The position numbers and the translations under genes were made by a program. The notes beneath the pieces were generated by a model. That model did no database searches and was not told the DNA's origin. It was given only the letters and a program-made list of their open reading frames with translations. DNA of 11,745 bases, from IMG/VR virus record IMGVR_UViG_2778261203_000004; one strand, written 5' to 3'. This document shows positions 1,532 to 9,782 of the stretch, piece by piece (within the stretch, counting starts at the first letter, position 1; each line of letters opens with the position of its first letter). Origin of the DNA: a virus. Its lineage: Duplodnaviria; Heunggongvirae; Uroviricota; Caudoviricetes.

Positions 1532-1741
1532 TTAATTTGAATACAATGCAATTCTCGAGGACTGAAGTTTCTCGCAATTAAAATTTATCAGTTTTACTTT
1601 CTGCTCTCTGGAAACGCCTGCTTCTTTTTTACCTGAGAGCATTTTTTCGCATTCTGATTTCGTTAGTTTAGATTTTGAATATCTTGTCCAGTTAGTAGGA
1701 GTGCCACCTTCCTTTTCAATAGTGGCGGTAATTTTATACAT
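1532..1741 (-). CDS. ydaC: Small prophage protein of unknown function (69 aa)
   Basis: The track ORF 1532..1813 would overlap ralR by 80 nt. The internal ATG at 1741 (MYKITATIEKEGG...) is preceded by a strong GGAGGTG Shine-Dalgarno and gives 69 aa, with only an 8 nt overlap with the ralR 3' end. Confidence 0.65.
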   Translation of the reverse strand: MYKITATIEKEGGTPTNWTRYSKSKLTKSECEKMLSGKKEAGVSREQKVKLINFNCEKLQSSRIALYSN

Positions 1742-6452: not shown

Positions 6453-6670
6453 AGGACTACACACAGCAATGTCGTTATTTACAACCGGAGGCGCACTCCC
6501 ACCATTTAAATTTAACAGACAAGACCGACTCTTTATGGATATCGGAAATGCGCCTTCGTGTTGTGCCCGGTTTTATTTCACCACCTCCGGGCTTCGGTGG
6601 TCTCGGCTATACCCCTACAGCGAGAGCTTGTGTTAACATTTCAATACCCTTACAGTTGAGAGTTATTGAT

Positions 6671-7159
6671 ATGTTGGATGTATTTACTCCATTGTTGAAA
6701 CTTTTTGCTAACGAGCCACTCGAAAGACTTATGTATACGATTATCATTTTTGGTCTCACTCTCTGGCTGATACCGAAAGAGTTTACTGTCGCATTCAATG
6801 CTTATACTGAAATACCTTGGCTCTTTCAGATTATCGTTTTTGCCTTTTCTTTCGTGGTCGCCATTTCCTTCTCAAGATTGCGAGCACATATTCAAAAGCA
6901 TTATTCATTACTGCCAGAGCAACGAGTATTGCTTCGTTTATCTGAGAAAGAAATCGCTGTATTTAAAGATTTCCTTAAAACAGGAAATCTTATTATCACT
7001 TCTCCTTGCCGTAACCCGGTTATGAAAAAATTAGAACGGAAGGGCATCATTCAACATCAGAGTGATAGCGCAAACTGTTCTTATTATCTCGTCACCGAAA
7101 AATACTCCCATTTTATGAAGTTATTCTGGAACAGCAGGAGTAGACGTTTTAATCGTTAG
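6671..7159 (+). CDS. sieB: SieB superinfection-exclusion membrane protein (162 aa)
   Basis: Start taken at ATG 6671 (MLDVFTPLLKLFANEPLERLMYTIIIFGLTLWLIP...), not the track's upstream ATG at 6548. Two hydrophobic helices (TIIIFGLTLWLI; WLFQIIVFAFSFVVAISF). It is the only + strand gene inside the leftward block. Confidence 0.8.
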   Translation: MLDVFTPLLKLFANEPLERLMYTIIIFGLTLWLIPKEFTVAFNAYTEIPWLFQIIVFAFSFVVAISFSRLRAHIQKHYSLLPEQRVLLRLSEKEIAVFKDFLKTGNLIITSPCRNPVMKKLERKGIIQHQSDSANCSYYLVTEKYSHFMKLFWNSRSRRFNR

Positions 7160-7456: not shown

Positions 7457-7619
7457 CTTATCTATCCCCTTAACGCCGGGTGGCGGAACTAACTGCTGCA
7501 CTGCAAAATTTGAATCCCGCCGTCATGTTCATACGCCTCGGGCTGGCTACTTAACCCCTGACCACTGCCTGGTAACTCGAAGTATTGCCCGGCGTTCTGT
7601 GGGGCGGGGTGGGTTGGTA

Positions 7620-7672
7620 GGTATATAATGTACTTTGTGTTCATCATTGTAAAGTACTTTAAGTACATTTTA
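7620..7672. promoter_or_regulatory. AT-rich block with three GTACT-core sites; candidate leftward promoter/operator region
   Basis: ATGTACT at 7628-7634, palindrome AAGTACTT at 7652-7659, AGTACAT (ATGTACT on the minus strand) at 7662-7668; TATAAT at 7623-7628. Lies between the racR 3' end and the ydaG start. The same ATGTACT heptamer occurs twice in the racR-ydaS control region. Confidence 0.35.
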
Positions 7673-7743
7673 TGTATAAAAAAATGAGACGGGATAAAGT
7701 GAAGCACAAACCCGGAGGGGGACGCTACCGGATTTATGCTGGT

Positions 7744-8163
7744 TTAAGAGGCTTTTTGTTTTTTCTTTCGTGCTAACTCTTCGTAAATTGCATTGTACTT
7801 CTGTTTTTTCTCCTCAAGAGTTTTTAAAAGTTCATCTGTCTCACTGTCAGGGAGCTCGTCCAGAAGGTCAATGATGATTTTTTGTCTTGGATTTAACTCC
7901 TGATAGAAACGTATCTGTCCACTTTCTTCTGTATCCTCTCCCAAAAGATAGGTTGGTGTTGTTCCAATGAGTGTTGCTAATTCCCTTAATTTCTCTCGGC
8001 GAGGAATTGTTTCACCATTAAACCATTTGCTAACCGCTTTTGGTGTTAATTTCATTCGACGGGCAATTTCTGCCTGCCTTCCATGTTGTTCATAACCAGC
8101 GTTTTCACAGGCTAGCGCAAGCCTACTGGCGAACTCTTTACGCGCTTTATCTTCATGAACCAT
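7744..8163 (-). CDS. racR: RacR, CI-like prophage repressor with helix-turn-helix (139 aa in this sequence)
   Basis: Helix-turn-helix segment RQAEIARRMKLTPKAVSKWFNGETIP. No ATG, GTG or TTG lies in frame between 8163 and the upstream stop at 8218-8220, so the ATG at 8163 is the only start. No obvious Shine-Dalgarno, so it may be translated from a leaderless or short-leader mRNA. Confidence 0.85.
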   Translation of the reverse strand: MVHEDKARKEFASRLALACENAGYEQHGRQAEIARRMKLTPKAVSKWFNGETIPRREKLRELATLIGTTPTYLLGEDTEESGQIRFYQELNPRQKIIIDLLDELPDSETDELLKTLEEKKQKYNAIYEELARKKKQKAS

Positions 8164-8242
8164 AAGTTCAATGATATTCGCTCTTGAATGTACTGTCAGT
8201 TCTGTTATAGCATGTACTCAAAGTTCACATTGTGAGGGTGAT
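8164..8242. promoter_or_regulatory. Divergent racR / ydaS promoter-operator region (79 bp)
   Basis: ATGTACT at 8188-8194 and 8212-8218; AAGTTCA at 8164-8170 and 8221-8227; inverted repeat TTCAA-N12-TTGAA at 8166-8187. A candidate rightward promoter is TTGAAT (8184-8189), 16 bp spacer, TATAGC (8206-8211); the heptamers overlap its -35 and start region. GAGGGTGAT ribosome-binding site precedes the ydaS ATG at 8243. Confidence 0.5.
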
Positions 8243-8497
8243 ATGAACCAGAAAACACTTGAAGATGTAATCAAAACTGTTCGCGTTTCTGTTGTGGCCG
8301 ACGTTTGTGGTGTCAGCCAAAGAGCAATCTACAAATGGATGGATAACGGAAAATTGCCTCGCACAGAATATACCGGCGAAACAAATTACGCTGAAAAAAT
8401 CGCTCATGCATCAAACGGATTATTTTCTGCCGATGCAATTTTAACTATTGGCAGAAATAAAACTACTACGAAAAAGCTGATGGGAGTTGATTCATGA
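8243..8497 (+). CDS. ydaS: YdaS, Cro-like helix-turn-helix protein (84 aa from ATG 8243; track ORF starts at 8171)
   Basis: Helix-turn-helix VADVCGVSQRAIYKWMDNGKLP. ATG 8243 has a GAGGG Shine-Dalgarno; the ATG at 8171 would leave only 7 bp between divergent genes and has no ribosome-binding site. The stop overlaps the ydaT start as ATGA. Confidence 0.7.
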   Translation: MNQKTLEDVIKTVRVSVVADVCGVSQRAIYKWMDNGKLPRTEYTGETNYAEKIAHASNGLFSADAILTIGRNKTTTKKLMGVDS

Positions 8498-8916
8498 AAA
8501 TCAAGCATGAGCACATCGAATCAGTGTTGTTAGCCCTGGCAGCCGAAAAAGGGCAGGCGTGGGTCGCTAACGCAATTACTGAAGAATATCTGCGCCAGGG
8601 GGGCGGCGAATTGCCCCTGGTACCAGGCAAGGACTGGAACAATCAGCAGAATATCTATCATCGTTGGTTGAAAGGTGAAACGAATGCGCAAAGGGAAAAA
8701 ATTCAGAAACTGATCCCTGCGGTTCTGGCAATTCTTCCTCGCGAGCTGCGTCACCGACTCTGCATCTTCGATACCCTGGAACGCCGTGCATTACTGGCGG
8801 CACAGGATGCACTGAGTACGGCAATTGATGCGCATGATGATGCAGTCCAGGCCGTTTACCGTAAAGCACATTTCAGCGGCGGCGGTTCTCCTAGCGATTC
8901 TGTCGTAGTGCATTGA
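8494..8916 (+). CDS. ydaT: YdaT, CII-like / toxic prophage protein (140 aa)
   Basis: 140 aa ORF, GGGAG Shine-Dalgarno at 8480-8484, start overlapping the ydaS stop. Sequence MKIKHEHIESVLLALAAEKGQAWVANAITEEYL recognised from memory. Confidence 0.8.
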   Translation: MKIKHEHIESVLLALAAEKGQAWVANAITEEYLRQGGGELPLVPGKDWNNQQNIYHRWLKGETNAQREKIQKLIPAVLAILPRELRHRLCIFDTLERRALLAAQDALSTAIDAHDDAVQAVYRKAHFSGGGSPSDSVVVH

Positions 8917-8928
8917 TTGAAATTAATC

Positions 8929-8952
8929 GTACCGAACTGTTTTGTTCGGTAT
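8929..8952 (+). other. Stem-loop immediately downstream of ydaT (8 bp stem, 6 nt loop)
   Basis: TACCGAAC tgtttt GTTCGGTA. No clear U-tract follows, so it is not a convincing intrinsic terminator; it may be a processing or attenuation structure ahead of ydaU. Confidence 0.3.
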
Positions 8953-8960
8953 CAGTTAAA

Positions 8961-8981
8961 TGTAACGCTGCGAGCGTTACA
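8961..8981. repeat. Palindrome TGTAACGCT-gcg-AGCGTTACA, copy 1 (intergenic, 13 bp upstream of the ydaU ATG)
   Basis: Perfect 9 bp inverted arms with a 3 bp centre; it overlaps the ydaU ribosome-binding-site region. Confidence 0.7.
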
Positions 8982-8993
8982 AGGTGAAAACAA

Positions 8994-9782
8994 ATGGCTT
9001 CAAACTGGATAAAGCTCGAAGTTATTACGCCGGATAAGCCGGAAATATTCAGGCTTGCTGAGATTCTGAATATTGATCCAGATGCCGCATTAGGGAAAGT
9101 CATTCGCTTCTGGGCATGGGCGGATCAACAAATGATAGACGGTAACGCAGAGTGTAACGCTCGCGGCGTTACAAAAAGTGCAATAGATCGCATCACTTTT
9201 ATGGCTGGTTTTGCTGATGCGTTAATTCAGGTTGGATGGCTGGTCGAAACTAATGGTGTGTTGTCGCTTCCTAACTTTGAGCGCCATAACGGGAAAAGCT
9301 CTAAAAAACGGGCGGTTACAAACGAGAGAGTAACAAAAATACGAGAACTGAAACGAAAAGGTAACGCTGCCAGCGTTACAAAAACGGATCAAAAAGCGTT
9401 ACCAGAGGAAGAGAAAGAGGAAGATATAAATACTTATCTCCCCCTAAATCCCCCTCGCCAAAAACGAGCGTCTAAAAAATTCGAACCGGAGGCTATCGAG
9501 CTGCCTGACTGGTTGCCGGAAACACTCTGGCATGAGTGGGTTCAGTTCAGGCAGGCATTGCGAAAACCGATTCGAACGGAGCAGGGCGCTAACGGGGCGA
9601 TACGGGAGCTGGAAAAATTCCGCCAGCAGGGTTTTTCACCTGAGCAGGTGATTCGACACAGCATCGCCAACGAATACCAGGGCTTGTTCGCGCCGAAAGG
9701 TGTTCGACCTGAGACGTTACTCCGACAGGTTAACACCGTCTCGTTACCGGATAGTGCGATCCCGCCAGGCTTCAGGGGGTAA
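8994..9782 (+). CDS. ydaU: YdaU, putative replication-initiator (lambda O-like role) protein (262 aa)
   Basis: ATG 8994 preceded by AAGGTGA; an in-frame stop at 8985-8987 excludes a longer N-terminus. Position directly upstream of the DnaC-like loader, and the internal palindromes, support an initiator role. Confidence 0.8.
   Translation: MASNWIKLEVITPDKPEIFRLAEILNIDPDAALGKVIRFWAWADQQMIDGNAECNARGVTKSAIDRITFMAGFADALIQVGWLVETNGVLSLPNFERHNGKSSKKRAVTNERVTKIRELKRKGNAASVTKTDQKALPEEEKEEDINTYLPLNPPRQKRASKKFEPEAIELPDWLPETLWHEWVQFRQALRKPIRTEQGANGAIRELEKFRQQGFSPEQVIRHSIANEYQGLFAPKGVRPETLLRQVNTVSLPDSAIPPGFRG
9153..9173. repeat. Palindrome TGTAACGC-tcgcg-GCGTTACA, copy 2 (inside ydaU)
   Basis: 8 bp inverted arms; an extra half-site GTAACGC lies at 9142-9148. 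Encodes the peptide ECNARGVTK. Confidence 0.7.
9361..9380. repeat. Palindrome GTAACGCTG-c-CAGCGTTAC(A), copy 3 (inside ydaU)
   Basis: Perfect 9 bp arms. Further half-sites at 9313-9320 (CGGTTACA), 9330-9335 (GTAACA) and 9386-9392 (GCGTTAC). Encodes KGNAASVTK. Followed by an A-rich, purine-rich tract at 9400-9480. Confidence 0.7.

Follow-up and report, generated by a model that had tools for sequence, protein, structure and literature searches.

An HK022-like repressor-cro cassette upstream of ydaT as the probable immunity switch of a Rac-type prophage

We analysed a stretch of 11,745 nucleotides (nt) of Caudoviricetes DNA (IMG/VR virus record IMGVR_UViG_2778261203_000004), hereafter the window, and describe here its regulatory region, in which a leftward repressor gene faces a rightward cro-type gene that runs into ydaT. 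The window corresponds to the left arm of a prophage of the Rac type that adjoins ttcA, and it is found at 100% identity in many Escherichia coli chromosomes. In one of these, that of strain 7/2, the genes intR, xisR, ralR, recT, recE, kilR, sieB and ydaF precede the switch region in this order. An initial annotation of positions 8164-8916 had read them as a divergent switch made of a repressor, a Cro-like protein and YdaT, and this reading was borne out.

The leftward helix-turn-helix (HTH) gene was confirmed at 7744..8163 on the minus strand. It encodes a CI-type repressor of 139 amino acids (aa) with a Pfam HTH_3 match, in which an HK022/933W-like HTH domain (residues ~1-75) is followed by a disordered linker and by a DicA-like helical C-terminal hairpin (~88-138). 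As had been stated, ATG 8163 is its sole plausible start, the next in-frame start being codon 37, inside the HTH. The divergent gap measures 79 bp (8164-8242, up to ATG 8243), and the rightward gene does have the two in-frame ATGs described earlier, at 8171 and 8243. We found that the preference given to the second one was justified. All Cro homologues begin at the aligned methionine, and the duplex with the anti-Shine-Dalgarno sequence is calculated at -6.1 kcal/mol for ATG 8243 versus -1.0 for ATG 8171. Upstream of 8243 the frame is interrupted by stop codons in the Klebsiella and Citrobacter phages as well as in HK022; only the window and Tritos, a phage of E. coli LF82, have an ATG there. 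ATG 8171 itself is the reverse complement of the -10 hexamer of the predicted repressor promoter PRM, is devoid of a Shine-Dalgarno sequence and stands upstream of the -35 hexamer of the rightward promoter PR. The alignments thus place the start of cro at 8243, where it is also set by PGAP; the resulting gene (8243..8497, plus strand) encodes 84 aa, with a Shine-Dalgarno sequence GAGGG at 8234-8238 and a TGA stop at 8495-8497. The longer form of 108 aa, annotated in Tritos from the equivalent of 8171, was rejected on the basis of the homologue starts, the upstream stops and the lack of a Shine-Dalgarno sequence. The third gene, ydaT (8494..8916, plus strand; Shine-Dalgarno sequence GGGAG at 8482-8486), encodes a CII-analogue DNA-binding regulator of 140 aa, described as a 'CII-like activator' in PHROG. 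Its assignment to the YdaT family rests on a PF06254 score of 43.1 bits for a cutoff of 21, on the conservation of H56, R57 and W58, and on a perfect YdaT box at its own start codon. The protein is identical to K-12 YdaT at 132/140 positions and is related to the solved structures 8BT1 and 3C4R.

The window DNA forming the right (OR) and left (OL) operators could be aligned column by column with the annotated HK022 record. We first derived an operator motif by eye from two sites in the divergent gap and then searched for it across the window: it gave four exact matches, for 0.01 expected, and outside OR it recurred only in the OL cluster. The symmetric motif TGWAC-N5-GTWCA found all five 15-bp sites, in these two clusters only. 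OR3 (TGAACCATAAGTTCA, 8156..8170) is identical to the annotated HK022 oR3; it is centred on the A of the repressor ATG and also encodes Met-Val-His. OR2 (TGTACTGTCAGTTCT, 8189..8203), the homologue of HK022 oR2 (TGTACTATCAGTTCC), overlaps the -35 hexamer of PRM and the start of the PR spacer, while OR1 (TGTACTCAAAGTTCA, 8213..8227), the homologue of HK022 oR1 (TGAACCATAAGTTCA), overlaps the predicted PR start. Beyond the repressor gene, OL1 (TGTACTTTGTGTTCA, 7629..7643) and OL2 (AGTACTTTAAGTACA, 7653..7667) are the positional homologues of the HK022 oL sites TGTACTTAAAGTTCA and AGTACCAATAGTACA, respectively. The centre-to-centre spacing is 24 bp for OR1-OR2 as for OL1-OL2. The predicted leftward promoter PL (7625..7653, minus strand) combines a -35 TTTACA (7653..7648), a 17-bp spacer and a -10 CATTAT (7630..7625), with a start near 7618; it scored 9/12 in the promoter scan and aligns with the annotated HK022 pL. 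The predicted PR (8184..8213, plus strand; 8/12) has its -35 TTGAAT at 8184-8189 and as -10 either TATAGC at 8206-8211, with a 16-bp spacer and a preceding TG, or TAGCAT at 8208-8213, with an 18-bp spacer. Its hexamers align with those of the annotated HK022 pR, TTGACT / CATAAT. A tripartite OR and an OL made of 15-bp dyad operators, overlapping PR, PRM and PL, are therefore found at positions homologous to those of HK022, where the cI-cro gap is also 79 bp and OR3 also lies on the cI start codon.

The proteins point in the same direction. In tblastn searches of phage genomes, the N-terminal domain of the repressor was 46.5% identical to HK022 CI (residues 4-102) and 50.7% identical to the 933W/phi24B-type CI (residues 1-73), and the rightward protein was 59% identical to HK022 Cro, 44% to the 933W-type Cro and 61% to a Salmonella homologue. 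With both a homologous repressor DNA-binding domain and a homologous Cro, the region belongs with the HK022/933W-type CI-Cro immunity regions, its kinship to 933W being more distant than that to HK022. The recognition helix reads TPKAVSKWFNGE in the window repressor and TPKAISKWFNGE in HK022 CI, a difference of one conservative residue, and it is therefore plausible that both repressors share their operator specificity. In other respects the two systems differ: HK022 possesses a cII of its own together with an OFR site and nun/put elements, whereas the window cro abuts ydaT, and a motif search revealed no HK022 OFR-like extra operator downstream of it.

The Rac prophage of E. coli K-12 is of the same prophage type, occupies the same attachment site and has the same layout, with ydaT following a Cro-analogue gene that diverges from the repressor gene. 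In pairwise alignment its DNA is ~99% identical to the window up to 7615, cannot be aligned over 7616-8487, and is ~95% identical again from 8488, 6 nt upstream of the ydaT ATG; identity breaks once more at the ydaT stop codon. The left boundary (7615/7616) coincides with the predicted PL start. Judging from this alignment, the swapped unit (7616..8487) is exactly PL/OL, the repressor gene, OR with PRM and PR, and cro, i.e. a complete immunity module. These boundaries, together with repressor and Cro genes that are not orthologous to those of K-12, therefore indicate that a Rac backbone has received a replacement immunity cassette. Taken by itself, this cassette occurs in 1049/5426 complete E. 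coli genomes (19%), and the K-12 cassette in 1089. The O157:H7 strain Wll001 carries the same three proteins within its ttcA prophage, and the cassette of the LF82 phage Tritos, 97.4% identical, sits in a different backbone beside a different ydaT allele. Tritos is a plaque-forming prophage that formed a plaque on MG1655, which carries the K-12 Rac prophage, and its CI is expressed in the lysogen 24-fold above background (PMC9928086). The 'phages' of the vB_EcoS-666R9 type were not counted as evidence of viability, as they are prophage predictions from clinical genomes. Altogether, we consider it very likely that a Rac-type lambdoid prophage at ttcA has its immunity (lysis/lysogeny) switch here, and that an HK022-type cassette has taken the place of the K-12 racR-ydaS cassette in it. 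Such a lambda-style on/off switch is ordinary in kind and falls within an already-known class of lambdoid immunity regions. What is particular to it is the presence in one immunity region of the HK022 operator type and of a DicA-type repressor tail, a combination that is common in E. coli.

It had been proposed that the repressor is translated from a leaderless mRNA, and this proposal comes out strengthened. The gene indeed has no usable Shine-Dalgarno sequence: its best anti-Shine-Dalgarno duplex reaches -2.2 kcal/mol and lies 13 nt from the ATG, compared with the value given above for cro and -6.8 kcal/mol for ydaT. A sigma-70 promoter scoring 10/12, the predicted PRM (8171..8199, minus strand), ends 7 nt before ATG 8163, with a -35 CTGACA (8199..8194), a 17-bp spacer and a -10 TATCAT (8176..8171). 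The intervening bases are TGAACTT, so that the AUG begins on the eighth base after the hexamer, with an A that is the sole purine at a typical start position. We aligned the OR regions of six loci (the window, Tritos, HK022, phi24B, one Klebsiella phage and one Citrobacter phage). Of the columns lying between OR3 and the PR -35, just three are invariant in these six diverged regions, those of T-12, A-11 and T-7 of the PRM -10; the TTG of the PR -35 is invariant as well. A seventh locus, a Salmonella short form, has TATAAT at the PRM -10 site and keeps the same three positions, and the ATG start codon of the repressor is kept at all loci compared. An AUG start, no Shine-Dalgarno sequence and a suitably placed -10 are the sequence features of a leaderless mRNA, and their geometry recurs in the seven loci. 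Lambda cI offers the same picture, with a gene devoid of a Shine-Dalgarno sequence, a PRM -10 immediately upstream of the AUG and a tripartite OR shared with the divergent PR. The repressor mRNA is thus most likely leaderless, with a predicted start at the AUG or 1 nt before it, as in lambda. A search of the published literature for 'leaderless' maintenance transcripts of these phages yielded nothing specific.

The PRM-like hexamers might however be incidental, the repressor being translated only from leadered mRNAs that start within or beyond cro, with ribosomes loading on an AU-rich leader without a Shine-Dalgarno sequence. A CII-type establishment promoter, expected by analogy with K-12 PracR4 and lambda PRE, would give such a leadered transcript; K-12 racR has a leader and three mapped upstream promoters, unlike the leaderless PRM predicted here; and the overlap of OR2 with the predicted -35 is awkward for a maintenance promoter. 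We nevertheless regard this explanation as unlikely. It has to account for hexamers that score 10/12 around a 17-bp spacer, for three critical -10 positions that stay invariant across seven loci while their neighbours vary, for an ATG start kept by all homologues, and for the lack of a Shine-Dalgarno sequence within 13 nt. Moreover, PR and YdaT are off in a lysogen, so that a YdaT-independent promoter beside the gene is needed. We retain a leaderless PRM transcript as the probable source of repressor in the lysogen, next to a leadered one that may be made during establishment.

The YdaT box TTGATTCATGAAAATCAA (8487..8504) forms the right-hand junction of the cassette. It is a perfect inverted repeat, with 0 mismatches, and contains both the cro stop and the ydaT start. 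It matches exactly TTGATT-N6-AATCAA, the consensus bound by the YdaT of CP-933P (PMC9986795), and differs by one base from the K-12 box ATGATTCATGAAAATCAA, which also lies across the ydaT start codon. In K-12 this site is footprinted by YdaT, which acts through it to switch on a leftward promoter and so increases racR expression (PMC11879457). Window, K-12 and Tritos all keep the box together with the first eight ydaT codons, while the flanking modules differ: the YdaT-family protein of Tritos is only 32% identical to window YdaT and resembles the CP-933P type, and in the Salmonella relative the cassette is paired with an unrelated downstream gene. On this comparison, the box therefore combines a regulatory role with that of right-hand module junction. 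The ATGA overlap noticed in the initial annotation was confirmed (cro TGA at 8495-8497 over ydaT ATG at 8494-8496), and it results from the extension of the cro frame into the conserved YdaT box. The coupling of the two genes deduced from it stands in part: co-transcription is likely, but translational coupling is optional, ydaT having a GGGAG Shine-Dalgarno sequence of its own. The paaR2/ydaS/ydaT locus of CP-933P in O157:H7 is likewise a CI/Cro/CII-analogue switch, with a YdaT member that binds this consensus (PMC9986795, PMC8630535). It differs from the window in two respects: window YdaT is of the Rac type, its full-length alignment to CP-933P YdaT (8BT1) giving only E = 1.7e-6, and the paaA2-parE2 toxin-antitoxin pair of CP-933P has no counterpart downstream of the window repressor.

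Two other sites resemble this box. The inverted repeat TTGATTATTAATAATCAG at 1504-1521 (2504-2521 in locus L002) has 11/12 of the specified bases, for 0.10 matches with at most one mismatch expected per window. Located 51 bp upstream of the xisR ATG (1453, minus strand), this repeat is also present in K-12 Rac; by analogy with lambda PI, it could place xis-int under CII-type control. Neither xisR nor integrase or excisionase is mentioned in the main text of the 2025 paper on YdaT. The second site, TTGATTGAAATTAATCGT at 8913-8930, is a half match with 2 mismatches that spans the ydaT stop codon, and is directly followed by a hairpin with an 8-bp stem, TACCGAACTGTTTTGTTCGGTA, at 8930-8951.

The initial annotation had also presented the rightward genes as a toxic pair held in check by an essential repressor. 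In K-12, depletion of racR is reported to be lethal (PMC5700373, PMC5700377), and whether YdaS or YdaT is the toxic component has been debated (PMC5700373, PMC5700377, PMC5917428). An atypical toxin-repressor or toxin-antitoxin system, whose rightward genes would kill or arrest the host once the repressor is lost, could be put forward on the strength of this lethality and of the 'toxin' label that YdaT bears in Pfam and PGAP. We judge it highly improbable. The repressor is divergently transcribed, unlike the antitoxin of a type II system, a protein that is made from the same transcript as its toxin and neutralises it by direct binding, and the rightward genes are homologous to a bona fide Cro and to a CII-analogue DNA-binding protein. 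As in lambdoid phages, the repressor lies between matched sets of OL and OR operators, and the cassette works in a plaque-forming temperate phage. A regulatory role is also favoured by Jobling's critique (PMC5917428) and by the work on YdaT (PMC11879457), and the toxic-pair framing is accordingly weaker than a CI/Cro/CII reading. From sequence comparison, the K-12 toxicity debate applies in the window only to YdaT, where conservation extends to H56, R57 and W58; the Cro-type protein belongs to another family.

The names racR, ydaS and ydaT had been taken from K-12. The last one holds, but for racR and ydaS the similarity is at the HTH level at most. In BLASTP, the repressor matches K-12 RacR over the HTH only (12/33 identities, 25.8 bits; 139 versus 158 aa), and the two are not orthologous in our comparison. 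The Cro-like protein shares 6/18 identities with K-12 YdaS (E = 0.028) and has no match to the Pfam family YdaS_toxin (PF15943), for which K-12 YdaS scores 107.7 bits. There is next to no chance that these are K-12-type racR-ydaS-ydaT genes, to which the K-12 genetics (essentiality, toxicity, mapped promoters and operators) would apply directly. The shared prophage backbone and integration site, the 94% identity of ydaT and the common gene order and divergent layout do suggest it, but at the sequence level it is already refuted by the two proteins and by the DNA of the cassette, which cannot be aligned. In addition, the spacings are unlike (a 79-bp divergent gap and a cro-ydaT overlap in the window, a 123-bp gap and 22 bp between ydaS and ydaT in K-12), the operators differ, the K-12 region displays different repeated sequences, GCCTAA/TTAGGC, seen by eye, and a phage with the window cassette formed a plaque on MG1655. 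Since neither the repressor gene nor the Cro-like gene is an orthologue of the gene that it replaces, the K-12 results on RacR essentiality and YdaS toxicity are not transferable to the window; only the findings made on YdaT are.

The repressor itself appears as a hybrid, with an HK022-type DNA-binding domain and a DicA-type C-terminus. HK022 CI has 235 aa and an S24 autocleavage domain, and the nearest relatives of the N-terminal domain (in HK022 and in Klebsiella, Citrobacter and Raoultella phages) are S24 peptidase-domain proteins of 235-251 aa. By contrast, the window repressor has no Peptidase_S24 match in Pfam, its alignment shows that the S24 domain is absent, and its AlphaFold2 model is all-helical. 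It thereby departs from the HK022/933W type, of which the LexA-like cleavage domain is a feature. In this model (mean pLDDT 82.8), a five-helix HTH domain is followed by a disordered linker (77-86) and by a helical hairpin (92-103 and 106-138). BLASTP aligned the protein with DicA at 28% identity over residues 30-137, covering both domains (E = 8e-15). With an HTH_3 N-terminus, a short DicA-homologous helical C-terminus and a length within ~135-150 aa, it groups by architecture with the short non-cleavable repressors of the DicA/Gifsy type. DicA of prophage Qin (DicA-DicC) and the Gifsy repressors GfoR and GtgR have the same size and architecture and likewise lack the Ala-Gly/Ser-Lys cleavage apparatus; they are not cleaved, and are inactivated by small antirepressors (PMC3121763, PMC10448788). 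The window repressor is probably uncleavable too. Its DNA-binding domain and operators are however of the HK022 type, unlike those of DicA, and its Cro partner is unrelated to DicC. A sequence search against solved structures returned only generic HTH matches for the repressor (P22 C2, 434) and none for Cro. A Foldseek search with the AlphaFold2 model likewise gave no more than XRE-HTH folds of a generic kind; full-length alignments were obtained with SinR/SinI and with an arbitrium-phage repressor, but with a high root-mean-square deviation. Short-form Salmonella homologues of 138-151 aa are 62-65% identical overall and keep the C-terminal tail, which is therefore not a recent truncation. That the protein is a decayed, non-functional remnant of a full-length S24-type CI, as the size of its closest N-terminal relatives might suggest, can be dismissed, since its C-terminal 50 residues are homologous to the DicA C-terminus and are not frameshifted S24 sequence, the tail is conserved in the Salmonella proteins and takes the form of a helical hairpin in a confident model, expression of the gene is seen in the LF82 lysogen and the cassette is found in 19% of E. 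coli genomes.

Two observations were made next to the repressor gene and in one of its relatives. A stable RNA hairpin (7703-7740, minus strand; -19.4 kcal/mol, z = -5) directly follows the repressor stop codon. It is not a canonical terminator, the T-run coming 20 nt further on, and its role may be to terminate or stabilise the transcript of the repressor gene ahead of OL/PL. In a Salmonella prophage (contig ABKIOY010000006.1, 3229-4417), a short-form repressor 65% identical to that of the window is associated with the same OR layout and with the Cro that is 61% identical; an unrelated gene of 133 aa lies downstream of cro and a HigB-type toxin gene adjoins the repressor.

Several points weigh against the switch as we understand it. 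Relative to the predicted PRM start, OR3, OR2 and OR1 are centred at +1, -33 and -57. In lambda the corresponding centres lie at roughly -20, -42 and -65. Lambda-style activation from OR2 does not fit the window layout: OR2 centred at -33 overlaps the PRM -35, and its occupancy should therefore hinder PRM and not activate it. Positive control of PRM by OR2-bound repressor is thus unlikely. The -35 regions of PR and PRM cross, so both promoters should exclude each other. PRM looks intrinsically strong, given its score, but the layout does not account for sustained repressor synthesis in a lysogen. The PR -10 TATAGC does not have the usual T at -7, whereas HK022 and other relatives have CATAAT. 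Inside cro there is no strong reverse, PRE-like promoter, the best candidates (8447..8419 and 8395..8367) scoring 8/12. The match to the NCBIfam DicA model, over positions 20-132 of 135, extends across the entire architecture but scores 56 bits, below the cutoff of 101. Finally, no homologue of Rem was found in the window, in locus L001 or in the Tritos segment, where no antirepressor was found, and no LexA box (CTGT-N8-ACAG) occurs in 19 kb of the prophage.

On this basis, we propose the following mechanism. The 139-aa repressor would bind the TGWAC-N5-GTWCA sites as a dimer, its C-terminal helical hairpin mediating dimerisation. Bound at OR1 and OR2, it would shut off PR and with it cro, ydaT and the replication genes; bound at OL1 and OL2, it would shut off PL and with it ydaG, ydaF, kilR, recET and xis-int. 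The PRM mRNA would begin at the repressor AUG or 1 nt before it and be translated without a leader, as for lambda cI, and the repressor would limit its own synthesis through OR3, located on the start point and the first codons. Cro, made from 8243, would bind the same operators and counteract the repressor. YdaT would act in a CII-like manner: binding its box across the cro stop and ydaT start, it may drive, by analogy with K-12, a leftward establishment promoter inside cro that yields a leadered repressor transcript. Because the repressor is devoid of a LexA-like cleavage domain, induction is not expected to follow RecA directly; it would depend on an antirepressor, as it does for DicA (with Rem) and the Gifsy repressors, or else on stochastic switching. 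Tritos is not among the LF82 prophages reported to be induced by ciprofloxacin, which fits an antirepressor-type induction, indirectly (PMC9928086). Loss of the repressor would harm the host via ydaT, kilR and replication, derepressed PL also freeing kilR and others, without the need for a dedicated toxin.

Other features of the window were recorded outside the switch. Three perfect 19-bp palindromes, GTAACGC-N5-GCGTTAC, are located ~200 bp apart at 8962-8980, 9154-9172 and 9361-9379, with none expected by chance; one is just upstream of a ydaU-like replication-initiator gene (8994-9782) and two are inside it. The N-terminal half of the ydaU-like protein is unrelated to K-12 YdaU, so the gene with its palindromes looks like a second swapped module, which may have brought its own origin or initiator sites. 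The RalA antitoxin small RNA (1557-1735, plus strand; 225 bits in Rfam) is antisense to the ralR region. According to the annotation of an identical strain, a DUF1187 gene stands in place of K-12 rcbA. The sieB open reading frame (6548-7159, plus strand) has an ambiguous start, giving 203 aa from the upstream ATG versus 162 aa in RefSeq (6671-7159).

These results have a direct bearing on nomenclature: the names racR and ydaS and the K-12 results fit only about half of the E. coli genomes that have either cassette (1089 versus 1049), and carrying 'RacR essentiality' or 'YdaS toxin' over to strains such as O157:H7 or LF82 is wrong. The cassette also provides a natural comparison, in which a well-studied HK022 operator system stands beside a probably non-cleavable tail, for how the induction logic may be swapped and the DNA specificity kept. 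The proposed switch predicts a leaderless PRM transcript from 8163, cross-immunity with HK022 and no RecA-dependent cleavage of the repressor. More tentatively, it is possible that about one fifth of complete E. coli genomes carry a switch that joins HK022 operator specificity, an SOS-blind DicA-type repressor and an OR3 with three roles, on a Rac-type prophage at ttcA in the strains examined, O157:H7 included, and on a different backbone in LF82/Tritos. If this is true, a single 15-bp OR3 would be autoregulatory operator and transcription start in one, and would also supply the leaderless repressor mRNA with its first three codons. Lysogens of this kind would be immune to phages of HK022 immunity and would switch only via an antirepressor or noise. 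The YdaT box would be both a CII-type control site and a recombination joint through which immunity cassettes and ydaT alleles are reassorted, and through the second such box, the one upstream of xisR, YdaT would be linked to integration.

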